A DNA stretch of 64,000 nt from Chlorobiota bacterium (lineage in GTDB: Bacteria > Bacteroidota > Ignavibacteria > Kapaibacteriales > NICIL-2), in contig JBGAVD010000005.1 of NCBI GenBank assembly GCA_044228285.1, forward strand, positions 193,648 to 257,647, in the 5' to 3' direction. Both the position numbers and the translations under genes were made by a program. This document shows positions 10,127 to 57,745 of this stretch, piece after piece; position 1 is the first letter of the stretch; every line of letters starts with the position of its first letter. Below the pieces are notes generated by a model. The model made no database searches and was not told the DNA's origin. It saw only the letters and a list, made by a program, of their open reading frames with translations.

Positions 10127-11386
10127 TTACTCTCCAGAGAGTACAACGACCTTACTCTCTACACCGCTATTCGTGCGCAATCGTACTATGTAGGAACCTG
10201 CTGAGAGGAGAGTACCCTTTGTATCGCGACCATCCCACTCTGTATAATAGCTACCTGCCTCCAACGAAGTGTTCTGTTCGAGTGAACGCAGATGCATACC
10301 ACGTACGTCATACACATCAATGGCAACAGTGCTGGCTTGATCTACATGATAGTGCACTCGGGCAACATCACGGAAAGGGTTAGGACTAACATGGTCTATG
10401 TATGTAGCTAGTGCGTTTCCTGATGTTTCGACAGGAACTGCGTCGATGATCTGCTTCAATTCTCGATAGAAGAGTCCGCCACCAGAGGTACCAACAAATA
10501 CAGTTGTAGACGTTGATGCAAAAGCGCGTATATCGGTGAAAACAAGTTGCTCGTTTGCAGACTGCCAGGAAGAAGCATTATTCTTCGACAAGAATACACC
10601 GCCGCCGTCAGTACCCGCAAAAATGACTCCATTGCTGACGGTCATTGCGTTAATGGTAACATTTGTCAGACCATTGTTCATCTGCGTCCAGCTCATACCT
10701 GAATTATTGGACACATATGCGCCTTCAGCAGTACCCGCCACGATGACTGTACCATTGACAACAAAGGAACTCACACTGTTCGCGGCGGAACCTAAACCCG
10801 TTCCAACCGGTATCCACATCGCGCCAGCGTCCGTTGAAACGAATACACCACCTTGAGTCGCAGCAAGAATGTTTGTTCCAAGTGCAGCAACTGTGTTGAC
10901 CGAAGCGGAAGGCAAGCCTGGACCTGCTGGGTTCCAATCTGTTCCGTTATTTGTAGACAGGTATACACCGGTTGATGTGCCAGCGACTAAGATGCCCGGA
11001 GCCGCAACGAGCGCAGTTACGTTTGTATTCTTTAGTCCGTTATTCACAGCAGTCCACGTGTTTCCATCGTTGTTTGTTACGAAAACACCACCTCCATACG
11101 TGCCTGCATACATCGAGCTACCGTTGCCGGCAACAGCAAAAGCGCGGAGATTTGACATACCATTGGTAGCCTGTGTAATACTACGACCATTGTCCTTGGA
11201 CACATACACACCACGTGTACTCGTGCCAGCAAAGAGAATAGAACCATTGAGTGCCAGTGACTTGATGGTGATGCCAGAATCAAGATCTGGACACGTCGCT
11301 TGCTTCCATTGCGCAGAAACTGAAACGCATAGGATAAGACTCATGAAAAAGGGAAGTGCTGTACGCACTGATGAAACTCTAAACAT
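10127..11386 (-). CDS. Secreted BNR/Asp-box repeat protein with type-A T9SS C-terminal sorting domain (paralog of 7969-9993)
   Basis: Asp-box repeats (TNNDGNTW, STNNGTDW, STDAGAMW, SNNSGMSW). The C-terminus (SPNPF ... DVYDVRGMHLRSL ... GSYIVRLRTNSG...KVVVL) is a T9SS CTD. The start is taken at the internal Met preceding the signal peptide MFRVSSVRTALPFFMSLILCVSVSAQ. The ORF could instead extend to 11455. Confidence 0.6.
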   Translation of the reverse strand: MFRVSSVRTALPFFMSLILCVSVSAQWKQATCPDLDSGITIKSLALNGSILFAGTSTRGVYVSKDNGRSITQATNGMSNLRAFAVAGNGSSMYAGTYGGGVFVTNNDGNTWTAVNNGLKNTNVTALVAAPGILVAGTSTGVYLSTNNGTDWNPAGPGLPSASVNTVAALGTNILAATQGGVFVSTDAGAMWIPVGTGLGSAANSVSSFVVNGTVIVAGTAEGAYVSNNSGMSWTQMNNGLTNVTINAMTVSNGVIFAGTDGGGVFLSKNNASSWQSANEQLVFTDIRAFASTSTTVFVGTSGGGLFYRELKQIIDAVPVETSGNALATYIDHVSPNPFRDVARVHYHVDQASTVAIDVYDVRGMHLRSLEQNTSLEAGSYYTEWDGRDTKGTLLSAGSYIVRLRTNSGVESKVVVLSGE

Positions 11387-11625
11387 TGTATGTACCAGAA
11401 AAAGTGTAAGTGTCGAAATTGAGAATCGAGTCAGTTGAGCGTAGTTGAAACTCATACTTCTGGCTCTGTAGAACTACATCAAAACAAAGATATATGCGTC
11501 GTGAACGTTCTAGCACTCCGTAGAAATACCGAACCTTCAATAGAATTGTGCGCCGATGCGCACTCTTAACGGAAAACTACGTACTGATAACCATCCGACT
11601 TCATTCATGCGGTACTGACACGAGC

Positions 11626-12430: not shown

Positions 12431-14464
12431 CTAATAGATGAGGAGTAAATGTGAACGATGCTGTGTAGAATGAGAGCTCTCTATTGTGTAGAGTCCACGC
12501 GGTAGGTCAGCAACAGAAATACTCACGTTTGAATCGTTCGACGAGCTTAAGCGTACTGTCTGCCCAATCGAGTTGACGATTCTCCAACTCGTAAGCACAC
12601 TCTTCTCTATCCACTCAACACGAGCACTACCGAATGGTATAGCACTCGGTATGATTGTGTATTCTTCGTCGAGCTCGGCTACGGAACTAGGGAAGTTGGC
12701 TGGATCCATCCCGCATGGTATGTGCGACTCACCAAAACTAATGCGATCATATGATAGCTCCGGTACACGTCGGCTGCGTTGAGCGTCTTGTACACTAAGG
12801 GCGAAAAACATAGTCGGTGACGTGTTCTTTGGAATACGGACCATATACTGGTTCGCTATGCCTGTAGTTTGCAGAGGATAATCTCTATACTCGCGTCCAT
12901 CAAAGCTCAGCGAAAGGACTGCGCTCACAATTGGAAATGCACTACGTATGGTATAGACGAAGTACTGATAGGTAGGAGCTGCATAGCTAAGAACTGGCGA
13001 GACAACTATCCCATGATGCGTAGCTGCTTCCATCATATTCGGTAAACCATAGCCGACAATGCTGTCTGGACTAGAATTCCGATTTGCATGCGCATACAAC
13101 AACGCGCGTACTTCATAGGGTTTCAAATCAGGAAACTGACTCACGAGCAACGCAATTGCACCTGCCAGGGCAGGTGTCGCGAATGATGTACCATTTCCTT
13201 TGTTGATATTCGCCGTCGTTCCTACTGTTGCCACATAGACATCTACTCCCAGAGCCACAACATCCGGTTTCAGTTTGCCCAGTGCATTTGGACCCTTTGA
13301 TGTCCACCGAGGTACATTCATCAAATCATCAATGACCGCTCCAACAGTAATGGCGGAGTCTGCATCACCGGGAGAGATAAGCGTTCGAGACTCTCCGCCC
13401 TCATTACCTGCAGCTACGCAACATATCATTCCTCGAGCTGTGGCACGATTAACTGCACGATCGCAGATTGTTGAGCGACCGTCGAGCATGGAGTAGTTAT
13501 ACGAAAGTTGAAGAGAGTCAAAATCAAAATAGCCGATAGACGATGAACTCACATCAACACCAGCCGCTTCCAACCATTCTATACCAGCTGCATAGTTGTC
13601 TTCTTCAATGCGACCTTCCTGCCGCATGTCCTCTGTCTTCGCCAGCATGATCTGAGCATCCGGTGCAGTGCCAATGAGGCTATCTGGTTGATAGGCGGCT
13701 ATGATCGAAAGAGTATTCGTTCCATGACCGTCCTGCGATCCAACATCAGCAGATTCGTTTTCGGTTACAGAATCTTGAAACACGAAATCGTACTCACCAA
13801 GCATACGCAAGTGCTGAAAACACTGCATTTGCTTGTAGCGAAATCCATTATCGAGAACTCCCACAAGACATCGCGAGCCTAGTTCTCCCATTGCGTGGAA
13901 CTCATCAGTATTGAGAAGTTTGTTCTGCCTGATCGAGGGTCCGTATCGAAAGACTCCACAGCTAGTATCAAAGGTCTTCAGTCCATTGCGTTTTGATCTT
14001 GGCTGTTCCTCTTGCGTCAGTAACTTGAAAAACGCACCGGTTTCGCTTACATCCTTGACGTACGACTTGGTCTTCAACAACTTCATAACTGTGGTGTCGC
14101 AGGAAACCACCACATAATTATCCCAGCGTAATTCCAAGAGGATTTTCGCACCTGTTTTTCGTATGTTATCGAGATAGGGAGCATAGAGGGGGGCATCTTC
14201 CAGACTGAAGAGTGAGTCTGCTTTCATCACCTTTGCTCTTCGTGCAAGGCATCGATCACTGAGGAGGGCCTGGGTTTGAGTGTACAGTTCACTTCCTTTG
14301 ACAAAGGGAGAAATGCCTTTATTCCGTAGATACACGCGATATGTATTGGCGTCCACAGGCGCACTCCACAATAGAAGCAGCACGAAAGCGGACAGGACTT
14401 GGCCACTTTTCAGCGTGTTTGGAGTCAAGTGTTTCCACTGTGCAAAAGCTAATCGAAGCTGCAT
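12431..14464 (-). CDS. S8-family subtilisin-like serine peptidase with T9SS C-terminal sorting domain
   Basis: Catalytic triad in D-H-S order: VGVLDNGF, HGTNTLSIIA, GTSFATPALAG. Signal peptide present. The C-terminal ~75 aa have a CTD-like pattern (ISVADLPRGLYTIE...LLLIY). Confidence 0.8.
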   Translation of the reverse strand: MQLRLAFAQWKHLTPNTLKSGQVLSAFVLLLLWSAPVDANTYRVYLRNKGISPFVKGSELYTQTQALLSDRCLARRAKVMKADSLFSLEDAPLYAPYLDNIRKTGAKILLELRWDNYVVVSCDTTVMKLLKTKSYVKDVSETGAFFKLLTQEEQPRSKRNGLKTFDTSCGVFRYGPSIRQNKLLNTDEFHAMGELGSRCLVGVLDNGFRYKQMQCFQHLRMLGEYDFVFQDSVTENESADVGSQDGHGTNTLSIIAAYQPDSLIGTAPDAQIMLAKTEDMRQEGRIEEDNYAAGIEWLEAAGVDVSSSSIGYFDFDSLQLSYNYSMLDGRSTICDRAVNRATARGMICCVAAGNEGGESRTLISPGDADSAITVGAVIDDLMNVPRWTSKGPNALGKLKPDVVALGVDVYVATVGTTANINKGNGTSFATPALAGAIALLVSQFPDLKPYEVRALLYAHANRNSSPDSIVGYGLPNMMEAATHHGIVVSPVLSYAAPTYQYFVYTIRSAFPIVSAVLSLSFDGREYRDYPLQTTGIANQYMVRIPKNTSPTMFFALSVQDAQRSRRVPELSYDRISFGESHIPCGMDPANFPSSVAELDEEYTIIPSAIPFGSARVEWIEKSVLTSWRIVNSIGQTVRLSSSNDSNVSISVADLPRGLYTIESSHSTQHRSHLLLIY

Positions 14465-14519
14465 CGAATGAGGTCGTGTAAATTGCCGATAGTTGTTCTT
14501 ATCAAAATAGCGAATTCAA

Positions 14520-15512
14520 ATGGATATGGCATGGACAGACGGTTACAAGGCTGCGGTTGAAAATTGTGCGTGGTTTGAGCGAACTGACCGAGCGATCTTC
14601 TCAGTGCGGGGAACTGATGCGCTCGACTATCTCAATCGGGTAACTACCAACGAACTTCGAGACCTAGCTTCCTTGCATCACCGGCAAACAATGCTGTGCA
14701 CGGACAAAGGTCGCATTGTTGATCTGCTCGATGTGTTCATGATTGAGGCTGAGATCTTTGTGATGTCTTCTCTTCATGCTCTCCCACAGGTGCTTGCGCA
14801 CCTGCGGAGCTATGCGGTCATGGATGATGTGCACTTCAGTGGACCCCTAGATACATTTTCCGTGTTGGAGATAAGCGGTCCTCATACAAGCTCCGCTCTG
14901 CGCTTCCTCTTTGGTGACACACAGGAATTGCCTCAAGCGAACAACATCGTAAAACTCAAATACGAGGGTTTTGAACTTTATGCTCTGTCTAGCCAAGCTC
15001 TTTGCGAGCTGTCATTTTTACTGCTAGTACCGAAAGAGGATAGTCCACGAAGAAGCGCATTTCTCTCAGAGCTTTCCTTGACTATTCAACAAGCAAGCGC
15101 TGACGAGTATGAGCTCCTGCGCTTGGATTCCGGTCACGCAACAGCTCCCAGTGAATTGAATGGTGACTTCAATCCTCTTGAAGCAAATCTCTTACATCTT
15201 ATCAATTTCAAGAAAGGATGTTACATTGGTCAAGAAGTGATCGCCCGCCTTGACTCCTATAACAAAGTGCAGAAGCGACTCGTGGGATTCCGAGCCAATA
15301 CAGCACTACCGCTAAAAGCCCAGATTGAAGTTGAGGAGGTTGCAGTCGGGTACATCACCAGTGTGAGTCATTCTCCGCGTTTCGGCCATGTTGCACTTGG
15401 TTATATTCGCAATGAGCATGCTTTGGAGGATAAGGTATGTGTTGTACGAAGTGTAGACAACAGTGTGCAGGTCCACCTGCAGCTTCTTCCATTTACTAAC
15501 GTTAAGGACTAA
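14520..15512 (+). CDS. ygfZ: YgfZ/GcvT-family folate-binding protein
   Basis: C-terminal signature KKGCYIGQE (K-G-C-Y-x-G-Q-E) characteristic of YgfZ. Length 330 aa. It lacks the GcvT N-terminal extension. Confidence 0.65.
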   Translation: MDMAWTDGYKAAVENCAWFERTDRAIFSVRGTDALDYLNRVTTNELRDLASLHHRQTMLCTDKGRIVDLLDVFMIEAEIFVMSSLHALPQVLAHLRSYAVMDDVHFSGPLDTFSVLEISGPHTSSALRFLFGDTQELPQANNIVKLKYEGFELYALSSQALCELSFLLLVPKEDSPRRSAFLSELSLTIQQASADEYELLRLDSGHATAPSELNGDFNPLEANLLHLINFKKGCYIGQEVIARLDSYNKVQKRLVGFRANTALPLKAQIEVEEVAVGYITSVSHSPRFGHVALGYIRNEHALEDKVCVVRSVDNSVQVHLQLLPFTNVKD

Positions 15513-17307: not shown

Positions 17308-18144
17308 TTATGCGTTGTCAAACGCGGTCAACTTCACACGCAAATCATTGCACACCTGTGTATGGATTTGGCAAATGCGGCTTTCAGTAAGTGAGAGCAA
17401 TACACCAATTTCCTTGAACGTCAAATTCTCGTAGTAGTAGAGCGTTACTACCAAGCGCTTACGCTCTGGAAGGTTCTTCAGATAGCGCATGAGGAAGGCC
17501 ATACGTTCTTCATCTGCCATGCGTGTCAATGGATTCTCGTAATCCATGTCAGGAATCTCCTGCAGGAGATCACGCTCATCACCATCGTCAGACAAACCAA
17601 GAGAAGACTTGGATTCGTTCATTGATAGGGACGCAACAGCAGCTGCCGCTGCACTAAGATAGGTTTGATACTCTTCAAGGCTGACATTTAGCCTCGTCCG
17701 GATTTCCTCTTCGCTAACCTCGCGACCAGTCTCTTTACGAAGTTGATCTGATACCGCAACGAGTTCATGAGCTTTCTTTCGTGCAGTGCGGGAGAGCCAA
17801 TCAAGTCTGCGCATTTCATCGAGTACGGTTCCTCGAACGCGGGGCATTGCAAAGGTCTCAAACTTGATTCCTCGTTCTGCTTCGAAACGATCAATGGCTT
17901 CATTGAGTCCCAGAATTCCCACATGCAAGAAATCCTCGTCACAGAGAATTGCATTGGTAGGGAGCGACATTGTATGCAAGGTATAGCGTACTAACCACAT
18001 GTAGTTAAGCATCAGACGCTTCTTAGCCTCTGAGCGCTTTGCAGCTGAGCTTCTTTTGGAATGAAACTCTTTCCATGCTGCTCGAACCGCGCTGTCGTCT
18101 ACACTAGGCGTAGGTTTCGTGAGTACTGTTTCCTGATCCACCAT
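17308..18144 (-). CDS. fliA: RNA polymerase sigma factor, FliA/WhiG (sigma-28) family
   Basis: Region 2 (FLHVGILGLNEAIDRFEAERGIKFETFAMPRVRGTVLDEMRRLDW), region 3 (LNVSLEEYQTY) and region 4 (LTFKEIGVLLSLTESRICQIHTQ) align closely with FliA. ATG with an AGGAG RBS. Confidence 0.8.
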   Translation of the reverse strand: MVDQETVLTKPTPSVDDSAVRAAWKEFHSKRSSAAKRSEAKKRLMLNYMWLVRYTLHTMSLPTNAILCDEDFLHVGILGLNEAIDRFEAERGIKFETFAMPRVRGTVLDEMRRLDWLSRTARKKAHELVAVSDQLRKETGREVSEEEIRTRLNVSLEEYQTYLSAAAAAVASLSMNESKSSLGLSDDGDERDLLQEIPDMDYENPLTRMADEERMAFLMRYLKNLPERKRLVVTLYYYENLTFKEIGVLLSLTESRICQIHTQVCNDLRVKLTAFDNA

Positions 18145-18181: not shown

Positions 18182-18574
18182 TCACTGTAGTTCGTTACCA
18201 GTGAGCATTTGATTGATTCGCTCTTCGCGCTCTTGATCCATTGCTCGCTGCTGAGAGTCCAATACTTGCTGTTCTGCTAAAGCCTCTTCATGTAGTCGCT
18301 GAATACGCTCTTCAGCTTCTTTCATTTTCACTCGATGGAGCACCCCAACGATCGTTACCATGATGATTCCCAGGCATACACTTACTCCAACAAAGACTAC
18401 AAGTGAGCGGTACATCGCCGTCGCAAAATCTGCCCGTGATCCAATCGTAAAAAGCAGATACGAAACGCATGCGGATAGGGTACTTACTTGGAAAAGTAGA
18501 CCTATTGGGTAGCGCGAACGAGCCGCTAAGTCCTTGTCCGAGCTTGATTTATCTGATTTCTTTGCTTTTGCCAT
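18182..18574 (-). CDS. Hypothetical small membrane protein (two predicted TM helices + C-terminal charged coiled-coil)
   Basis: 130 aa. Lys/Ser-rich N-terminus, TM1 IGLLFQVSTLSACVSYLLFTIG, TM2 LVVFVGVSVCLGIIMVTIVGVL, then an EAEERIQRLHEEALAEQQ... heptad-like segment. It occupies the position between flhF and fliA. Confidence 0.5.
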   Translation of the reverse strand: MAKAKKSDKSSSDKDLAARSRYPIGLLFQVSTLSACVSYLLFTIGSRADFATAMYRSLVVFVGVSVCLGIIMVTIVGVLHRVKMKEAEERIQRLHEEALAEQQVLDSQQRAMDQEREERINQMLTGNELQ

Positions 18575-18635
18575 GGTTCGTACACTAGGTGTCCATCAAG
18601 TCACTATCCAAAATTGTGCCATCAAAATGAACGCC

Positions 18636-19820
18636 TTATGCGCTTCTGGTAATTTGGGGCTGGAAAACGCTATCCACTATTCGTTCTGGAGTTGCAGCTT
18701 TTATCGACTGAGGGATTCCACGGCCGTCTGTGAGAAAAGATACCGGAACGTTGTAAGTGTGTAGCGCTTGCAGACATGTACCTTGCAATCTTGAACAGTC
18801 GACTTGCGTAAGGACGAGCGCGCACTCAGGGAGTGCTGAGGCCATTCTCATCCATTCATGTGCTGTTTTGTCGTTACAAACTGCGGATACAGTAAGTAGA
18901 ACCGTGTCAGCGTTTGTAGCACTTCTCAATTGCTCGATGCGTGCCGCGCTTTCCGAATTGGCACTATCTAACTGTACTTCTATAAAGACGAAGTCTTGAT
19001 CGTCAGTGTTCTGCATTAATTCCAATAGTTGTTGATTCGAACTATAGGACTCAAGGCGAACGCTTTGAACGTTATCTGGTAGTTGAGCATGTGCACTTGA
19101 AGGCTGTAGTATCAGTGCATTTGAATTCATGGTGAGCGCGAAACTAGCCGAGAGTTTCGCGCACAACGAGCTTTTGCCGCTACCGGGCGCGCCACTGACG
19201 ATGACAATCTTCGGTTGCGAACTTGGTCGTAATGGGTTTGATGTGCGGAGCGAGCTGCAGAGATGAGAGCGCAGTGCTTGACGGAGTATGTCAACTTGAG
19301 CTTCTATGCCTTGTTTATGCAAGTAGGAAAGCAGCTCGTTGCAATGTGTTTCACTGAAGCCAGCCTCCAAAAGCTCCGATTGAAGCACTAAGAATGCAGG
19401 GGGAGTAAAATTCCGTTGCTGAGAGCTTTGAACGGTGCTCAGATTCTCAATTGCTTTCCGTAGAGAAGCGATTTCCGATTGAATGGACTGGGTGTCAGCT
19501 GGAACTGACGCCGAGTAGCGGGTACGTAACTGAGTCTGAGGTGCTTGCGCGGGCGCATCTGGATTCTTTGTCACAGAAGTCGCAAAAAGTGGATTTCTGC
19601 GTTCGCCGGCAGCAAAGGCAATATCGGAGGGCACACGACGTTGTTGGCGGTGCAATTCCAACTCTTCGGGTTCTATGCCAGCCACTACTTCGGTAACTGG
19701 TAGACTCCCAGGTTCGAGAATCTCCCGCGAGGATAGGATAATTGCCTCTTCCCCCAATTCATTGCGCATTTGCTCCAAGCTATCGCGCATGTTTCGTCCA
19801 TGAAACTTCTTGATTCGCAT
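18636..19820 (-). CDS. flhF: FlhF-like SRP-type GTPase (flagellar biosynthesis regulator homolog) with degenerate G2/G3 motifs
   Basis: N-terminal B-domain MRIKKFHGRNMRDSLEQMRNELGEEAIILSSRE closely matches the FlhF N-terminus (B. subtilis MKIKKF...ELGNEAVIL). P-loop GAPGSGKSS retained. The G4 region VLTQVD and C-terminal NVPVSFLTDGRGIPQSI match FlhF. G2 (DTYR) and G3 (DTAG) are not conserved. Confidence 0.75.
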   Translation of the reverse strand: MRIKKFHGRNMRDSLEQMRNELGEEAIILSSREILEPGSLPVTEVVAGIEPEELELHRQQRRVPSDIAFAAGERRNPLFATSVTKNPDAPAQAPQTQLRTRYSASVPADTQSIQSEIASLRKAIENLSTVQSSQQRNFTPPAFLVLQSELLEAGFSETHCNELLSYLHKQGIEAQVDILRQALRSHLCSSLRTSNPLRPSSQPKIVIVSGAPGSGKSSLCAKLSASFALTMNSNALILQPSSAHAQLPDNVQSVRLESYSSNQQLLELMQNTDDQDFVFIEVQLDSANSESAARIEQLRSATNADTVLLTVSAVCNDKTAHEWMRMASALPECALVLTQVDCSRLQGTCLQALHTYNVPVSFLTDGRGIPQSIKAATPERIVDSVFQPQITRSA

Positions 19821-19992: not shown

Positions 19993-22900
19993 CTAGTGTG
20001 TTATCACGAGGGGAAGCGTATGTAAACTGCCGGCGCTTGTCATTCGCACACGGTAAACACCGGACGCAAACGCATGAACGTCGACGAGATACGTGTACTC
20101 TCCAGCTTTATGCTGACCATTCGTAAGGACAGCGACAACTTCACCCTTCTCATTTACAACATCCAACGTTGTGTGCGTTTCGAACCCAACAGCGTAGGAG
20201 ATTTTTGCAAATCCATCTTGAGCTGGTTGAGGTGATACAGAACGAAGAGCGAATGGGGTTTCGCTGACTTTGACAAAGCGTCCACCCATATAGCAACCTA
20301 CAATACTAGTATTCGCAGAACCAAGGTTAACGAGAACACAAGCTTCGCGACCGTTTGGCTTGAAGTCTGCCAATGGCGCAGTGAAGGACTGAGTCTTCAT
20401 ACTATCAATGAGAATCTGCATTTTGACTTTCACCAAATCGCCTGACGCACTCACTGGTGTACTTCCACTTGCAGTGACAATGAGATCAACCGAGTCCGGA
20501 GAACTCGTGTTTACTTGAACTGCAGAATCGATTTTCCAGCTGTTGTCGAACATTGCACCGAGTTGAGCCGTATTCTTCATATAGATGATATCAAATCGAT
20601 TGTAGCGGATACCAGCCGTGAACGACTTAACACCCGCATCCGCCCATTGCGTTGAGACTGCGCTCAGCGAAAGCTCGTTTACCGAGCCATCTGTTGCCAT
20701 ATCCATTGTCGCCTTCGCAAACGCAACGTTTGCAGCAATGGTCGAGACTTTAGTAGACGCCAAAAGAGAGTCTGTGAGCACGAGTCCATCATTAAATCTT
20801 GCATGGACATAAGCCTTATATGTACCTGTTCGCAAAGCGGTTGGATTAAAGACCACATCAAGTTTCACTGAAGATGCAGGTTGTATTGTGATTGGATTGC
20901 CTGGAGTTGGCGTACCGCTGATACTAAAGTTTGCAGCATCCGGTCCGTCTATCCACACTGAATCCAAGATGCGATCGGAGTTCGTCGCACCTGCGGCCGC
21001 ACTATTACCAACGGTGAACACTCCAGCTGGATGATCGCAAGCAGTATTCAAGCCGAAATCATGTCCTTTAACATACGGTGGATTCTGGATGATGCCGTAT
21101 GCCGTAACCATTACTATGGTCTCAAAGGTTCCGGTTGGATTTGCAGTGATAGGTTCTGCATTGTGAACGATGCGAACACGAACATGTTCTGGACCAGCCT
21201 TCGATGCAGTAAACCGCACTGGGATGAGGAATGGAGCCGAACCAATGTCGATAACGGTATCCTTTGGTAAGGTTCTCGTCCAGGCAAAGTCGCGAGGATA
21301 GATACGCTTTACATCATCGTCTGCCTCGTTGATGAAGTCGATACTATGGATAGTCAGCCAGCGAGAGGTACTAGTGTTTGAAATACTCACAAACTCACCT
21401 GCATTTGCGGATACGATAGAGTTGCCTGCAAGCTGAGGAGTCTTAATCTCTGCGTCTAGACATTGAATCTTCTCTAAGTAGCCGTAACCTGTAAGAAAGG
21501 CTTGCTTGGTAACATCGGTCGGGAAGGTGCCTTGAATCAAAGGAGTTTTTGGTCCTTCAACGGTTGGGAGGAACAATACGTCTGCCCGGACCGAATCAAG
21601 ACGGTTCTGGTACACAATAAATGGGATAGCGCGTTCCGTTCGTGTAACTGTATACTCAACCGGAATTGATGATACAACGTCGACGGCAGTACACGTAACC
21701 TGTTGAGTACCACTATTGCCAATGTAACAAGGAAGGGTCTTTGAAACACCCAATCGAACGCTGTCCCAATCATTTCCTATCACATAGGGTCCTGGAGCGC
21801 TTGAGCTTCCAAGCCATGTAGAAATAGGATCATCCTTCGGACTACTTGGTGCGTCACTTAAGAACGGTATGTCAAGTTTCCACTGGTCTTCTGTGGTAGG
21901 GGAGAAGCACACTTCTCGAAAAATCACGCTCTGACCTGGTGGAATAACGATCGTAAATGGAGGAGTTGTAGGTTGATTTTTATTGATGCTAAAAGGAGGA
22001 GTGATCTTCGTCTGATCTATACCTGTAACATGCAACGTATCCGTTCCAACGTTCTTAATAGAGAGATTTCCAGGAATACTACTATTGCAGACCGATTCCC
22101 CAATTCCCACGGTGCCAGCATCAAAATCACCAACTTGGATGTGTGGCATTACACCACGACCTCTAACGTAAAAGGCAAACGGAGCGCATGTTTCCTTTAC
22201 GAGAAGGGAGTCGAAATCTAAGTCTTGTGGAGTACTTACCTCTCTGGTAGGCAGGTAGCTAAGAGTGACGAGAATCGAATCATGCGCCTTGATGACAAGT
22301 CCTGTTGAGTCCGCAGCAGTGTCCGATTTCACACTAAACTCAGCTCCCTTAAGCATGTAAATTTTCTTTACCTTGATTGCTGAATCGTTGTCATTACGAA
22401 TCCAGACTTTCATCGACTTCGATGTACCTACTCGTACGTCACCGAAGTTTACTGGATCTGGATTCAAACGCACACGCGGCGCGAACCACGATACGCTATC
22501 GTAAGTAAAATTGAATGCGCGGTCAATGACATAGAACTTTGCGTATGCATCCTTGCTTTTGTCGATGACTTCGAGTCGAAATGTTGTTTTGAAGTTACTT
22601 GAAGAAACAGGTACTTTGCCGTCTTGTACTTCTTTGCCGTCCGAATGTGTAACGACGATGCGGTAGTTGAAACTACGAGCGTCAGCAGAATCGACGAAGT
22701 CTATCTCCCTAATACCAGTTTCAACATGATCTAAGGTATCATTAACCTTGAAGTTTCTTACTTCAGTACCTTGATAAGTGAAATCTCCACACTCCTCCGA
22801 TCTCGTCAATACAGGAGGCAGGGTATCAAACACATTGAGTTGCTTAAAGGCTGTGGCGGCTGGCCAGCCGTACGAGTCAAATTGGCCATAACCATAAATC

Positions 22901-24387
22901 TCGCCACCGAATGGGGTGTCGCCAAGAATGGTGTGTGGACCATTTGAGATACCAATTCGGGCGTAGTACAGATTTGTTCCTGGAATGCGATTACCTAAAA
23001 AGCTAGGAGTAGTGTTGTAGACGAACTTACCGTCGATCTTGATCGACTTCAGCAGCTTTGCAGAAGCATCTGAGGAGTCACCAATCGCAATCAAGCTAAA
23101 ATAGTGCGTCGTGTACGCAGGATTCGAAGGACATTGGAATATTGTTCCCTTCGTGTACTGTTCCTTTGCTACACAATAAATAGTAAAGGGATCAAAGTTG
23201 TTGTCGTTATCCCAATTTGCTGACGGACATTCGTGCATCAGTTGGAATGGCTTGTTTCCTTTGAAGATAGCCATTCCAACGATTCCTTTGGATTTAGCAG
23301 TCGCAGAACCAGGTCCATCTGATGGTTCCTCTGGAGACTTTGGCAAAGAGCGAACTTCTCCGGCTCTCATACCCAGCACCCCTGTCGGACCATTCAAACG
23401 TTTGCCTGTTTTAAAATCGTAACTCTCCCAGGTGATGTTCGTTCCATTCTCTTTTGCTACTGCTCGGTACAGGTCACCAAGACCGCCACGGACAAACTCA
23501 ACGGTGACGTAGGTTTTACCCCATTGTTCAACCGGTGGTACCATTTCGCAAACGTGATCTCGCCCTCCTCCAAGATTGAAGCAGGGGAACATGGTTCTCT
23601 GGTGAAAATCAATGAAACCGATAGGTTTCGTAGCCACAACTCTAGTACCGCTTAAATCGAATTGGCCTCTGGTCGTACCGTCTCCTTGGACGATGTACGC
23701 TTGACCACGCATCAGATTCACTTGCCAATGATCGCCATATTTATGTCCACCTTCGGTTCGTTTTCCTAAGCCCGTTGTTGCATACTCTCCATATGACGCT
23801 GAACGCGCATAAATATCAACCAGAGTGTTGTCTTCAGATGCAAAGAAGCAAAAGCCAGCCTTCCAATTACGGGCTTCATTGAAATCTGGGTAGGTGAGGG
23901 CATAGTATTCTTTGCCCCAAGATTGAACAGGGATTGCTAGGTATCCATCTGAAGAAACCTGTTTACCATTGTAGACATACACTGATACGTAATCATCAGC
24001 CTTGATGCTGATGCACAAATCTGAAACAGTCTCACTACCGATGACTTCCGGGATTGGAAAAACGCCACCAGCTCCATCAATGACAGTAACTTTTCCAGCT
24101 GTGACACGCAACCTTGACTTGAATCCTAAAGCAGGAACTTCATAATCAAAGGATGTGTTCTTAGAGGACGTGACATAGATTTCACGAGCGGTAGCTCCAC
24201 AGCTCGCGCAGTCATTCAGCGGTAGGCAGAACACAAAATCTCGACCTTGAGAGCCATTGTTCAAGATCCATTCTGAAGTAGGTTTCCCGCCCTGCACCGT
24301 TGGTGCTTTTTTCACTTGAGCACTAAGCGGATACAGCGCAAGAAGTGCAACGACCACCAAACGTATCCACAAGTATCTAAACGCCAT
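19993..24387 (-). CDS. Giant (1464 aa) secreted cell-surface/adhesin-like protein with T9SS C-terminal sorting domain
   Basis: Signal peptide MAFRYLWIRLVVVALLALYPLSAQ. The N-terminal ~500 aa are Cys- and Gly-rich with a beta-helix-like character. The middle has repeated Ig-like / all-beta segments. The C-terminal ~80 aa (LDVVNEKGEVVAVL...GEYTYLVDVHAFASGVYRVRMTS...LPLVI) match the T9SS CTD. Confidence 0.7.
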   Translation of the reverse strand: MAFRYLWIRLVVVALLALYPLSAQVKKAPTVQGGKPTSEWILNNGSQGRDFVFCLPLNDCASCGATAREIYVTSSKNTSFDYEVPALGFKSRLRVTAGKVTVIDGAGGVFPIPEVIGSETVSDLCISIKADDYVSVYVYNGKQVSSDGYLAIPVQSWGKEYYALTYPDFNEARNWKAGFCFFASEDNTLVDIYARSASYGEYATTGLGKRTEGGHKYGDHWQVNLMRGQAYIVQGDGTTRGQFDLSGTRVVATKPIGFIDFHQRTMFPCFNLGGGRDHVCEMVPPVEQWGKTYVTVEFVRGGLGDLYRAVAKENGTNITWESYDFKTGKRLNGPTGVLGMRAGEVRSLPKSPEEPSDGPGSATAKSKGIVGMAIFKGNKPFQLMHECPSANWDNDNNFDPFTIYCVAKEQYTKGTIFQCPSNPAYTTHYFSLIAIGDSSDASAKLLKSIKIDGKFVYNTTPSFLGNRIPGTNLYYARIGISNGPHTILGDTPFGGEIYGYGQFDSYGWPAATAFKQLNVFDTLPPVLTRSEECGDFTYQGTEVRNFKVNDTLDHVETGIREIDFVDSADARSFNYRIVVTHSDGKEVQDGKVPVSSSNFKTTFRLEVIDKSKDAYAKFYVIDRAFNFTYDSVSWFAPRVRLNPDPVNFGDVRVGTSKSMKVWIRNDNDSAIKVKKIYMLKGAEFSVKSDTAADSTGLVIKAHDSILVTLSYLPTREVSTPQDLDFDSLLVKETCAPFAFYVRGRGVMPHIQVGDFDAGTVGIGESVCNSSIPGNLSIKNVGTDTLHVTGIDQTKITPPFSINKNQPTTPPFTIVIPPGQSVIFREVCFSPTTEDQWKLDIPFLSDAPSSPKDDPISTWLGSSSAPGPYVIGNDWDSVRLGVSKTLPCYIGNSGTQQVTCTAVDVVSSIPVEYTVTRTERAIPFIVYQNRLDSVRADVLFLPTVEGPKTPLIQGTFPTDVTKQAFLTGYGYLEKIQCLDAEIKTPQLAGNSIVSANAGEFVSISNTSTSRWLTIHSIDFINEADDDVKRIYPRDFAWTRTLPKDTVIDIGSAPFLIPVRFTASKAGPEHVRVRIVHNAEPITANPTGTFETIVMVTAYGIIQNPPYVKGHDFGLNTACDHPAGVFTVGNSAAAGATNSDRILDSVWIDGPDAANFSISGTPTPGNPITIQPASSVKLDVVFNPTALRTGTYKAYVHARFNDGLVLTDSLLASTKVSTIAANVAFAKATMDMATDGSVNELSLSAVSTQWADAGVKSFTAGIRYNRFDIIYMKNTAQLGAMFDNSWKIDSAVQVNTSSPDSVDLIVTASGSTPVSASGDLVKVKMQILIDSMKTQSFTAPLADFKPNGREACVLVNLGSANTSIVGCYMGGRFVKVSETPFALRSVSPQPAQDGFAKISYAVGFETHTTLDVVNEKGEVVAVLTNGQHKAGEYTYLVDVHAFASGVYRVRMTSAGSLHTLPLVITH

Positions 24388-54935: not shown

Positions 54936-55493
54936 CTATGGTTGTACTTGGGAGTTGTACTGTCGTCGATACTCTGCAACATAATCCACATAGTTCTGTG
55001 CGGATTGTTCAAGTTTTGCACGTTCGTCTGCTCGGAGCTCACGGACTACTTTGCCAGGGACGCCAGCAATGAGAACACCGCCAGGTGGTGTAGAGCCTTC
55101 TGGGAGTACAGTTCCTGCAGCTATAAGTGTGTAGGGTTCAATGACGCATCGGTCGAGGATCTTGGCACCCATTCCAACAAGCACAAAATCTTTGATGATA
55201 CAGCCGTGAAGCACTGCGCTATGACCAACAGTTACATTATTTCCAATGTTCAAACTGTGTTTCTTATAGGTCACATGCAGCATCGACAGATCTTGAATGT
55301 TCGTCCGTTCGCCAATGCGGATAGAGTGAACGTCACCGCGAATCACCACATTGTACCAAACAGAAGAATATGCACCTATCTCGACATCTCCAAGAATAAT
55401 TGATCCCGCCGCGTAAAAAACACTAGGGTGAATATTCGGCCTTATTCCTCCATATTCGAAGATCTGACCGCTTTGTCCGCTTTCTTTTTGCAT
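54936..55493 (-). CDS. Gamma-class carbonic anhydrase family / left-handed beta-helix hexapeptide-repeat protein
   Basis: VVIRGDVHSIRIGERTNIQDLSMLHV aligns with the YrdA/CaiE family. The start is taken at MQKESGQ. The ORF extends to 55565. Confidence 0.7.
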   Translation of the reverse strand: MQKESGQSGQIFEYGGIRPNIHPSVFYAAGSIILGDVEIGAYSSVWYNVVIRGDVHSIRIGERTNIQDLSMLHVTYKKHSLNIGNNVTVGHSAVLHGCIIKDFVLVGMGAKILDRCVIEPYTLIAAGTVLPEGSTPPGGVLIAGVPGKVVRELRADERAKLEQSAQNYVDYVAEYRRQYNSQVQP

Positions 55494-55553
55494 ATCATTG
55501 TGAGAATTGGACTGCAAAGATATCAAGGAGCTACGCATCACAAGGGTTCGGGC

Positions 55554-55561
55554 GTATTTTT
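55554..55561 (+). promoter_or_regulatory. Putative Bacteroidota-type -7 promoter element (TATTTTTG) upstream of the NTPase gene
   Basis: Fits TAnnTTTG, 21 nt upstream of ATG 55583 in an 89-bp divergent intergenic region. This is sequence match only. Confidence 0.25.
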
Positions 55562-55582
55562 GCATGAAACTATCGTATACCT

Positions 55583-57745
55583 ATGCTCATCGGACGAACT
55601 AAGGAACTCGATCTCATTCTCCAGGAGATCCGTAAACCCGCTACGGCAAATGACCTGAAGCGCATTATTGCCGTGCACGGGATGTTTGGCGTAGGGAAGT
55701 CAACTCTGCTCAGAGAGGTGATTGCCGAGCTCCAACAAAGCAACATGGTGCACGCTGTGTTGTATTCTAATGAAGATGCTCACATAGAGCACCTGCCCGA
55801 GTTTATGTATCAGTTGGTGAATTCATTCAGAGCATGCAAAGCAGACGTACCGCGATACAAGAGCGATGAAACTGACTCACGTTGGATGAGATTCAATGAG
55901 ATTCAACAGGAGTTAGAACAGACTCGTGCGGCTGCAAAATCCACATCAGAGTCTGGCACAACTGAGAGCGTAGCACAACTTGTCAAACACCGTAGCGCAG
56001 ATGAACGCAGGCTGATGACTGATACAGCATCAGTTATTTGTGAGACCTTGATCGTGGATCTGATGAACACTTTCTATCCGCTAGGTGCATCTGGCGGCGA
56101 ATCGCAAGTTCCAGCGGCTCACAGTCAAACGAAGATTGTCATTGTTATTGATACCTACGAGAAAATGACAGCCGCTTTGAATAGCTGGCTTCTTGAGCAC
56201 TTCCTTTTGTATTGTTACATAAAACGCTTTGGAGATTTCAGGTCCTACAATTCACCCTATCTGTCTCAGGAAGTGTATGTGAGACAGTTTTTTGACATTC
56301 GATTTGTGATAGCAGGCCGTGAACCTTTGCGTACAACAGATCCAGAGCGTAGGTGGGATCGATGGCAGCATACCTTACTTGAACTTGGTTTGCGACAATT
56401 CAATCCTGAGAATATTCGAGAGTACTTTGATGAGAACAAATTAGAGTTGCAGAGTGTTGATGAGGTCATGCATGCAACTGCGGGGATCCCGTACCTTGTG
56501 AGTCTTTGGTCTCATGCGCATCGCTTTGATGAGACTCATGCGGATGGTAATCAGACGATTGCAGCGCACGCTCAAGAGCGAATCTTCTGGTACAAAAGTC
56601 CTCAACAAAAAGAGTGGATCAGAACTGCAGCTTTTTGTGATTGGTTTGACGCTGATCTCCTCCGTTGTTTTCGATCATCACACGATCATTCACAAGAAGC
56701 CTATAATTACTTGAGACGCAGCACGGAGCTTTGCCGAGAGTCAACAAGCCACAAAGCGAAGCTGGAGCTTTTAGCTGTTGTACGTGAGAGCATCCGACAC
56801 GCTGTTCGACAAGAGTCTCCGGAACTTGCGAAAGAGTACGAACTAGTTGTCAAGACCTACACTTCAGCAACAGAGTTGCTCTCCAAGTTTGACCAGGACG
56901 AGCAGGATGCTTTACGGCACTTAGCCTACCTTCGGTGTTGTGACCTCAGCTCTACATTGCGAGAACTCTGGCCGGCTGACCAATCAGTAGTCGAACGCTT
57001 AGTTGAACGGTCTCCGAGCTTGTTTGAACAGCACAAAAGAACGATATCTCTCCAAAGCGATACCCATCAGCTATTGGCTCGCTTCAACTCTATGTACGAT
57101 AGTAGTAACGACTCTATAACGAAGAGTAGAGTCCATGAGTATTGGCAGAAAACAAGCGCTGAACTTCAGGCGGAGTGTAACAGCGCAAAGCTTAATCATG
57201 AGAAGGTAGAAAAGGAGATCGTCCGTCTGTCCTCAGAATCAGAGAAAGCTGAGCTTGATTTGCGCGACGCTCAAAACCAGTGTATGGAGTTGGAGTCCGA
57301 GATACGCCCTCTACGTCAAAACACTCCACCGCTGACAACGAATCGTGATGCAGCTGCTGCACGTATTGCCTTCATTCTTTGTCTTGTCCTCGCTGCCGCC
57401 ACTGTTTTCTCGCATGAGTGGATGCCGATGTTGCAAGCTCCTCAAGACATGGAAGAAGCGATTCAAAAAGTACTTCTGGCGTTTGCGATTGGCTTTGCCG
57501 CACTTTTCATATTCTTCGTGTCTCGTTCTATGGCCTTACGCCAGCGTCGCCGACAACATCAGAAGAACAGAGCGGTATTAGCAGAACTCGATGAACGGTA
57601 CAGTGCGGCGCGCGAGAAACTCAACGCCTGCCATACTCTTTTTGATGCAAGGAAGAAGGAACTCGCAATTCAGCGATTGAGAAAAGAAGAGTTAATGAAA
57701 CGCATCACTCTGTTGGAAGATCAGTTATCAGAGGCTATCGTGTAG
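55583..57745 (+). CDS. Membrane-anchored STAND/AAA_16-like P-loop NTPase (hypothetical; C-terminal coiled-coil + two TM helices + coiled-coil)
   Basis: N-terminal LIGRTKELDLILQEI followed by Walker A GMFGVGKSTLL. Walker B-like KIVIVIDTYE. Sensor-1-like FVIAGRE. A helical His/Cys-rich middle region. C-terminus: coiled-coil (ELQAECNSAKLNHEKVEKEI...), TM1 RIAFILCLVLAAATVF (nt ~57349-57411), TM2 VLLAFAIGFAALFIFFV (nt ~57470-57523), then a basic coiled-coil tail. Confidence 0.5.
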   Translation: MLIGRTKELDLILQEIRKPATANDLKRIIAVHGMFGVGKSTLLREVIAELQQSNMVHAVLYSNEDAHIEHLPEFMYQLVNSFRACKADVPRYKSDETDSRWMRFNEIQQELEQTRAAAKSTSESGTTESVAQLVKHRSADERRLMTDTASVICETLIVDLMNTFYPLGASGGESQVPAAHSQTKIVIVIDTYEKMTAALNSWLLEHFLLYCYIKRFGDFRSYNSPYLSQEVYVRQFFDIRFVIAGREPLRTTDPERRWDRWQHTLLELGLRQFNPENIREYFDENKLELQSVDEVMHATAGIPYLVSLWSHAHRFDETHADGNQTIAAHAQERIFWYKSPQQKEWIRTAAFCDWFDADLLRCFRSSHDHSQEAYNYLRRSTELCRESTSHKAKLELLAVVRESIRHAVRQESPELAKEYELVVKTYTSATELLSKFDQDEQDALRHLAYLRCCDLSSTLRELWPADQSVVERLVERSPSLFEQHKRTISLQSDTHQLLARFNSMYDSSNDSITKSRVHEYWQKTSAELQAECNSAKLNHEKVEKEIVRLSSESEKAELDLRDAQNQCMELESEIRPLRQNTPPLTTNRDAAAARIAFILCLVLAAATVFSHEWMPMLQAPQDMEEAIQKVLLAFAIGFAALFIFFVSRSMALRQRRRQHQKNRAVLAELDERYSAAREKLNACHTLFDARKKELAIQRLRKEELMKRITLLEDQLSEAIV

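Follow-up and report, generated by a model that had tools for sequence, protein, structure and literature searches.

The 64-kb window analysed here, a stretch of contig JBGAVD010000005.1 from a Chlorobiota bacterium, carries a gene referred to as T that encodes a 720-residue membrane-anchored NTPase of the STAND (signal transduction ATPase with numerous domains) type. T is a STAND NTPase whose C-terminal module and set of partners are without precedent, and it belongs to an uncharacterised, previously undescribed family covered by no Pfam or NCBIfam model. Comparison of gene order across genomes indicates that T is an old, stably and vertically inherited chromosomal gene. The original prediction, made from the DNA alone, had offered defence or signalling as the role of this protein, and the evidence favours the second wording. 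We put at about even the chances that T is an inner-membrane NTPase switch acting in envelope-to-cytoplasm signalling rather than in defence, with a link to motility possible. The gene (positions are those of the window) is as follows.

55583..57745, + strand: gene T, complete, 720 amino acids (aa); open reading frame with an ATG start kept in the family alignment, and full-length homologues

A family with a recurrent architecture

All sequences compared were derived from metagenome-assembled genomes (MAGs) or metagenomes. The named sources of family members are MAGs of "Chlorobiota bacterium" and "Candidatus Kapaibacterium sp."; Kapaibacterium is assigned to Bacteroidota in the NCBI taxonomy. 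A word-indexed search returned 15 full-length relatives of T, and further word-indexed searches with the family alignment and with protein X, a partner described below, added no new relatives. When the profile covered just the N-terminal 470 residues, an exhaustive search gave 1292 matches at E<=1e-3, 78 of them at E<=1e-30. Among the top 111 matches, 81 are 680-760 aa long; their hydrophobic segments fall at about 580-670, and the tail measures about 60-115 residues (mostly 68-83). The C-terminal region was left out of the query, so the recurrence of the membrane hairpin is independent of it. Members are 16-30% identical to the window protein and form at least about 80 clusters at 50% identity. 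Since the whole layout recurs in about 80 such distant homologues, the architecture is far beyond chance. The original prediction had recognised no named family, and indeed no Pfam or NCBIfam model covers T; no description of this architecture, or of the gene trio described below, was found in the searchable literature.

The NTPase module

Residue numbers are those of the window protein, and conservation percentages are from the 81 diverse members. The N-terminal part of T contains the following features.

55583..56392, + strand: P-loop NTPase core, residues 1-270, with a helical insert at about 95-164
55679..55705, + strand: Walker A, GMFGVGKST, residues 33-41; G33, G36, G38 and K39 conserved 98-100%
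56132..56161, + strand: Walker B strand, KIVIVIDTYE, residues 184-193; D190 conserved 94%
56312..56323, + strand: AGRE, residues 244-247, with the sensor-1-type arginine R246 conserved 98% family-wide
56393..56587, + strand: helical domain with GxP motif (G301-I-P303); G301 93%, P303 86%; helices in the AlphaFold2 model
56588..56782, + strand: winged-helix-like domain, residues 336-400; from conservation, the helix and strand pattern of the AlphaFold2 model, and structural matches that reach through the region

The N-terminal 400 residues of T, judged from sequence, belong to the STAND class. This assignment rests on weak Pfam matches to STAND-type families together with the conserved R246 and the GxP motif. 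The window protein scores 32.5 bits against AAA_16 (cut-off 32.6), 22.1 against NB-ARC (23.5) and 16.8 against NACHT (26.7), with further weak matches to NPHP3_N, ATPase_2 and nSTAND5/6; all of these weak matches lie over the first 115 residues or so. AAA_16 is matched at E<=1e-3 by just 13 of 66 family members, an NCBIfam search of the window protein returned no match, and no solved structure is related to T by sequence. The best Foldseek match of the predicted model is MalT (E=5.8e-8), and the best fold matches are MalT, CED-4 and NLRs, spanning 440-540 alignment columns and extending through the winged-helix-like region. The N-terminal motif xxGRxxE is common to the T family and to soluble AAA_16+TPR proteins, its nearest soluble relatives. 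The STAND assignment made in the original prediction is thus upheld, and the Walker A, Walker B and AGRE motifs that it named are all read in the translation at the residues listed above.

The NTPase residues are conserved 93-100% despite overall identities of 16-30%. Near-invariant across the family are G33, G36, G38, K39, E154, D190, R246 and G301, and the winged-helix-like domain keeps W345, F351, L360 and F363 (EWIRxAAFxDWFDxxxLRCF). The N-terminus of T is probably a STAND-type nucleotide-binding oligomerisation module whose catalytic and switch residues are strongly constrained. The Walker B motif of the family reads D-[TND]-[YF]-[ED], with the second acidic residue at +3 (E193) and none adjacent, in place of the hhhhDD/DE form. 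A helix between Walker A and Walker B carries E154 (94%) and D159 (89%), which are conserved like the catalytic motifs. Because the Walker B motif has no adjacent second acidic residue, it is tempting to speculate that E154 may supply the catalytic carboxylate.

The C-terminal membrane module

The structural statements on T rest on one AlphaFold2 monomer, with a mean pLDDT of 84.9. It predicts a P-loop alpha/beta core followed by helical and winged-helix-like domains up to about residue 505, then a helix, a hairpin and a second helix. The features beyond the STAND domains are as follows (TM, transmembrane segment; IQR, interquartile range).

56783..57097, + strand: helical extension, residues 401-505, with the family motif RxLAYFxxFD (445-454; here RHLAYLRCCD); from conservation and the AlphaFold2 model
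57101..57322, + strand: first long helix or coiled coil, residues 507-580; AlphaFold2 helix 507-580 (74 residues), heptad-like at 527-575; family median 70
57353..57523, + strand: two-TM hairpin, TM1 591-609, loop 610-628, TM2 629-647; from hydropathy; in 73 of 81 members
57533..57730, + strand: second long helix or coiled coil, residues 651-716; AlphaFold2 helix 621-716 (about 96 residues), continuous with TM2; tail median 73, IQR 70-77
57725..57742, + strand: conserved extreme C-terminal peptide, L-x-E-[PSA]-[YF]-[IV] (here LSEAIV); L715 74% and E717 70% in 81 members

The order of helix, two-TM hairpin and helix, anticipated in the original prediction, is confirmed by hydropathy and by the AlphaFold2 model. 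TM1 and TM2 have Kyte-Doolittle 19-residue means of 2.33 and 2.36, and the count of 73 hairpin-bearing members is of those with two clear TM segments at the threshold used. In these 73 members a median of 70 residues (IQR 68-73) separates W521 from TM1, the loop between the TM segments has a median of 15, and a median of 73 (IQR 70-77) follows TM2 up to the C-terminus. Lysine and arginine are fewest in the loop, with a median count of 1, compared with 3 ahead of TM1 and 4 behind TM2, and the predicted topology is therefore in-out-in, with both termini cytoplasmic. The lengths of the helices before TM1 and after TM2 do not covary (r=0.02); length-matched helices are compatible with an antiparallel stalk but are no proof of one. 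The original prediction had called these helices coiled coils. Long helices are indeed predicted, but the heptad score of T is only about 2.3 standard deviations above shuffled sequences, so that the term rests mainly on the predicted helices and on composition.

Two further positions outside the NTPase core, F481 and W521, are conserved. RxLAYFxxFD (56915..56944) is conserved 70-86% in the 81 members and is intact in the L010, L004 and L005 clades. The His/Cys-rich region noted previously is real as a local enrichment, histidine and cysteine making up 7.2% of residues 271-505 versus about 4% elsewhere, but it holds no conserved metal motif. The sole conserved residue of the two kinds is C362, and a His/Cys metal-binding site is ruled out. 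Likewise, S412 was dropped as a phosphorylation site for the kinase-like partner H described below, as it is not conserved family-wide.

An old locus with divergent promoter-like motifs

T is the sole + strand gene between 50771 and 62789 in the open reading frame listing, at the coordinates and on the strand given in the original prediction. The neighbour names given there also match, as judged by Pfam labels on the syntenic locus L007. It had further been proposed that T was inserted between two operons, and this part of the prediction is not supported. Three MAGs (L001, L002 and L007) have the gene order of the window with T at the same site: a histidine kinase, pfkB, ddl, UDG, purT and the gamma-carbonic anhydrase (gamma-CA) gene on one side, and gatA, tatB, tatA, purQ, purS, pssA and psd on the other. 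In these fully syntenic MAGs the T orthologues are 70%, 56% and 55% identical to T. The flanking purine, cell-wall and lipid proteins, measured in L001 and L002, are 69-80% identical to those of the window, and the upstream histidine kinase is 55-58% identical. In a fifth genome, L010, T is 41% identical and the left half of the locus is kept, with T again divergent from gamma-CA. Among close orthologues the NTPase core is conserved like the housekeeping neighbours (81%), and the long helices are the fastest-diverging part (53-60%).

The gamma-CA reading frame (54936..55565, - strand) is listed as 209 aa, and its orthologues have only 179-184 aa; its start is therefore likely the ATG at 55493, which would give 185 aa. 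With that start, the divergent intergenic region is 89 nt long and holds two invariant TAnnTTTG-like motifs.

55555..55562, + strand: promoter-like -7 element TATTTTTG (TAnnTTTG), 20 nt upstream of the ATG of T
55515..55522, - strand: promoter-like element TATCTTTG (TAnnTTTG on the - strand) for the divergent gamma-CA gene, 22 nt upstream of its probable start at 55493

In the intergenic alignment of the syntenic loci, the block GTATTTTTG, which contains TATTTTTG, is invariant across five genomes, as is the block CAAAGATA, which corresponds to TATCTTTG on the opposite strand. We take both TAnnTTTG motifs to be putative primary-sigma -7 elements of the Bacteroidota type. A scan for sigma-70-type promoters and terminators gave results at chance level only, and no tRNA genes or Rfam features were found in the 64-kb window.

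Owing to the synteny in five genomes and the invariant motifs, it is reasonable to conclude that the T locus is an old pair of divergent promoters and no insertion scar. The GC content of T (0.45-0.49) does not differ from that of its flanks; with the orthologues at the same site and the invariant intergenic motifs, this led us to reject a recent insertion. The original prediction had set its reading against that of a housekeeping gene kept in place throughout the lineage; the orthologues do keep to one site in the lineage, but none is known to have a housekeeping role. Among 80 metagenome loci anchored on gamma-CA, none shares another gene with the window and none has a T family member. These loci all come from non-syntenic lineages and are therefore uninformative on the presence or absence of T.

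Probable partners of T in relatives

The neighbourhoods of 13 distinct family loci were read, a sample that is small and not fully independent. Seven of them (L005/6, L009, L012/13, L096, L097, L098 and L100) contain a same-strand trio in which T comes last, directly downstream of genes for protein X (570-650 aa) and protein H (134-143 aa). Gaps are -4 to 47 nt between X and H, and 4 to 188 nt between H and T. Between lineages X is 24-37% identical and H 38-56%, with T just 20-32%. The X genes lie at the following positions of their loci.

L006, 7548..9500: protein X
L009, 7516..9462: protein X
L012, 2903..4759: protein X
L096, 5464..7374: protein X
L097, 5865..7574: protein X
L098, 5539..7446: protein X
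L100, 7753..9564: protein X

X, taken to be an exported beta-rich protein, begins with a hydrophobic signal-like segment and is matched by neither Pfam nor NCBIfam. The conserved part is the C-terminal half, with HLVFLK, NNWN, ANYTxYDF and SFRQ among its motifs. A model built from four sequences has a pLDDT of 36 and is unusable, and almost all of it is long beta-hairpins, a weak hint that X may be all-beta and perhaps an outer-membrane barrel. H has a strong match to HATPase_c_2, and its best NCBIfam matches, below cut-off, are the anti-sigma factors SpoIIAB and RsbW. By eye, the N-box and G-box motifs of the GHKL fold are apparently kept.

Upstream of the trio in three of these loci (L096, L097 and L098) lie flbD and a gene for the N-terminal half of ClpB. 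Downstream of T in L098 are a FlhF-like gene (169.7 bits; cut-off 174.15), a MinD-like gene in the position of flhG (best NCBIfam match archaeal-type MinD, below cut-off), a gene for a small two-TM protein, and a FliA/WhiG sigma factor gene (206 bits; cut-off 189.6). ClpB appears to be split in these lineages: the gene upstream of flbD encodes 435-440 aa that correspond to positions 1-427 of the 853-position ClpB model, and near the T family member of L004 there is a 442-aa gene (13249..14577) whose product has AAA_2 and ClpB_D2-small.

L096, 3812..5125: N-terminal half of clpB
L097, 2961..4283: N-terminal half of clpB
L098, 4038..5345: N-terminal half of clpB

Other members have other neighbours. 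In the clade of the window, gamma-CA stands on one side of T and either gatA or an M28 peptidase gene on the other. L004 has aspS and plsY; L014 has BamD and mfd, with fliP 9 kb away; and murF and ddl are also among the family contexts.

The window itself encodes flagellar-type regulators, 36 kb from T. A FliA/WhiG sigma factor gene lies at 17308..18144 (- strand; TIGR02479, 210.6 bits; cut-off 189.6), and its product is 57% identical to the sigma factor downstream of T in L098. Next to it, at 18636..19820 (- strand), is a gene for a FlhF-like GTPase of the signal recognition particle type, whose best NCBIfam match is FlhF at 99 bits, below the cut-off of 174. Unlike in L098, no FlhG/MinD-like gene lies between the two. 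MAGs of Kapabacteria are reported to carry flagellar and chemotaxis genes (PMC7509429, PMC6338057).

The gene that does lie between them (18185..18595, - strand) encodes a protein of about 130 residues, in which two TM segments follow a charged N-terminus and precede a charged helical tail; its homologue in L098 has 236 aa and is encoded at the equivalent place. In the hidden Markov model (HMM) of the T family, the stretch covering the TM hairpin and the second helix matches this protein in register. The score is just 14 bits, and the likeness is therefore probably a compositional resemblance and not homology. The products of two further genes of the window, 10127..11455 and 19993..24387 (- strand), are large and secreted and weakly resemble Por_Secre_tail, the C-terminal sorting domain of type IX secretion, at scores under the Pfam cut-off. 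One of them is the 1464-aa protein with IgGFc_binding and ASH domains directly upstream of the FlhF-like gene. The organism therefore appears to have both type IX secretion cargo and flagellar regulators.

Proposed function

A switch mechanism can be proposed from these features. The two long helices would pair into a stalk of about 10 nm that holds the NTPase head under the inner membrane, and the C-terminal peptide may dock back onto the head. By the general STAND mechanism, the head would oligomerise in a nucleotide-dependent manner and so switch an output. X and H would be the ancestral partners of T. In species with the trio, X may serve as an envelope-side input and H as a cytoplasmic output, for example by controlling a group-3 sigma factor such as FliA; flagellar regulation would be one likely target in some lineages.

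A more specific version is offered tentatively and is, in our estimate, rather unlikely as it stands. X-H-T would form a trans-envelope signalling system in which a T signalosome captures or releases an RsbW-like anti-sigma kinase and so gates a FliA-type sigma factor. An exported protein of the envelope would be the cue for capture and release, and in T of the window the switch would have taken a derived form that stands alone.

Several observations weigh against an envelope-to-cytoplasm switch, or at least against its flagellar form. The function of T is inferred, for the window protein as for every relative. X and H were not found in the 64-kb window or in any locus of its clade (HMM searches, E<=10), and therefore T of the window may act without them; alternatively, they may be encoded elsewhere in the genome. 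The window subclade has degenerate forms of RxLAYFxxFD (RHLAYLRCCD in the window, LHLSHLHRCD in L001, KHLAHVRHFQ in L002 and RHVAYLRHCI in L007), which could reflect the loss of a partner-binding surface. The predicted periplasmic loop is short and poorly conserved, which makes it awkward as a sensor of an envelope protein. In the neighbourhoods read, no genes for STAS or PP2C partner-switching proteins were seen. The flagellar link comes from three to four loci, possibly of shared ancestry. The conserved promoter-like motif of T is of the housekeeping type, and a look by eye upstream of T gave no convincing match to a sigma-28-type promoter. Finally, the T member of one relative, L099, has a helicase gene close by and, at a distance of about 7 kb, a restriction-modification gene of Type ISP (N6_Mtase, MmeI_Mtase and Type_ISP_C).

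In the window clade T would have become physically separated from X and H. T of the window has its own conserved promoter-like motif and is most likely expressed constitutively. As it lacks adjacent partners and has a degenerate RxLAYFxxFD, its switch would probably work on partners encoded elsewhere or have been simplified.

If T does signal from the envelope to a sigma factor, the STAND superfamily would gain a new input and output logic. T would then act as a STAND-based checkpoint on the expression of flagellar or envelope genes in bacteria of the Bacteroidota/Chlorobiota group, and it would open a way into gene regulation and the control of motility among the poorly studied bacteria of the Kapaibacteria/Ignavibacteria type.

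Alternative functions

T could instead be a membrane-organising or landmark NTPase, similar to mitofusin, atlastin and bacterial dynamin-like proteins or to polar landmarks, that tethers or shapes membranes or marks a site on them, such as that of a flagellum or of division, and takes no part in sigma signalling. We consider this unlikely. The layout of NTPase, helix, TM hairpin and helix, with both termini predicted to be cytoplasmic, is mitofusin-like, and in L098 T directly precedes genes for flagellar placement and number (the FlhF-like gene and the MinD-like gene in the position of flhG). BamD, murF, ddl and plsY among the other contexts fit such a role. However, the NTPase is of the AAA+/STAND fold and lacks a dynamin-type G domain, the matches to the long helices are generic, and the conserved GHKL partner H is left unexplained.

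The defence role named in the original prediction is more doubtful. As a single-gene anti-phage or abortive-infection STAND protein, T would respond to a phage cue by NTP-dependent oligomerisation, after which the hairpins would form a pore or damage the membrane. TM effectors are known among defence STAND proteins, as described in PMC13581612 and PMC13001434. The STAND module is structurally similar to NLRs and to Avs5, and the C-terminal part of T is the fastest-evolving. The stable synteny and invariant promoter-like motifs of five genomes argue against such a role, as do the conserved operon with partners of non-defence type in relatives and the lack of a repeat-type sensor, the TPR arrays of the closest soluble relatives having been lost in the T family. 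Among the 13 loci, at most one has a defence-like context: in L099 (5301..12636) the T member P0163 lies about 0.7 kb from a 1054-aa DEAD/ResIII helicase, in addition to the Type ISP gene. In this small sample, with contexts judged by Pfam labels, that rate is no higher than chance (P=0.18 under a null of 0.0153, from PMC13581612). PADLOC gave no significant defence match for the window protein or the family: the window protein matches only mad8 (21.4 bits, residues 26-138, the P-loop), a weak P-loop-level similarity found in 21 of 66 members (best E 3.4e-7). No copy of T was found in searches of plasmids, phages, viral contigs and BFVD, where the viral pattern scan used a subset of the family. 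Together, these results do not bear out the defence reading.

Membership of the KAP or YobI/Tmn class of transmembrane P-loop NTPases is very improbable and was rejected on the number and position of the TM segments: the window protein reaches 21.5 bits against YobI-ATPase (cut-off 27) and E=0.083 against KAP_NTPase, which is matched in 5 of 66 members, with 27.1 bits (cut-off 20) in the distant member L014, but T has just two TM segments, about 400 residues downstream of Walker B, and none between Walker A and Walker B, its best fold matches are MalT, CED-4 and NLRs, and PADLOC returned no Tmn match. According to PMC13001434, the P-loop domain of YobI/Tmn proteins is interrupted by two TM helices, and KAP proteins have four TM helices.

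Comparison with known systems

The H protein of the trio loci resembles the kinases of RsbW, SpoIIAB and RsbT modules, being a small HATPase_c_2 protein with best curated matches to anti-sigma F and anti-sigma B factors. The stressosome works as a large oligomeric scaffold that holds such a kinase. In contrast to partner-switching modules, T has no STAS or PP2C genes seen nearby, the scaffold would be a membrane STAND protein, and H was not found near the window gene by HMM.

Unlike the antiviral STAND proteins Avs1-5 and bNACHT, T lacks a defence HMM match, sensor repeats and a defence-island context. It is instead syntenic and vertically inherited, and its relatives stand in an operon with X and H. 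For genome mining this carries a caution: a lone STAND gene with TM helices is by itself no evidence of defence.

T is like Tmn and KAP proteins in that a P-loop NTPase is tethered by a TM hairpin, and Tmn also has a coiled-coil element beside the membrane (PMC13001434). However, the hairpin of T is C-terminal and far from the NTPase core, and the NTPase class differs. Mitofusins, atlastins and bacterial dynamin-like proteins share with T the layout of an NTPase, a stalk, a two-TM or paddle anchor and a returning C-terminal helix. T lacks the G1-G4 motifs of a dynamin-type G domain, and the NTPase folds (dynamin G domain versus AAA+/STAND) are unrelated, so the analogy is one of architecture only.

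The nearest relatives of T by profile search (E about 1e-17 to 1e-25) are the AAA_16+TPR STAND proteins of the MalT/AfsR type. They share with T the order of NTPase, helical and winged-helix domains, the Walker A and B motifs, the sensor-1 arginine and the GxP motif. The D-[TND]-[YF]-[ED] form of Walker B sets T apart from the hhhhDD/DE of STAND proteins. Unlike these relatives, T has no TPR, WD40, LRR or other repeat sensor at its C-terminus, as judged by Pfam and the AlphaFold2 model, and no DNA-binding or other recognised output domain. It is instead anchored in the membrane by a helix, two TM segments and a second helix that ends in a conserved peptide. Most current work on STAND NTPases treats them as immune receptors or as soluble regulators of transcription. 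In the T family a membrane hairpin on a helical stalk replaces the sensor repeats. Its inheritance follows the pattern of a core gene, and genes for an anti-sigma-type kinase and for flagellar regulators are repeatedly found alongside.

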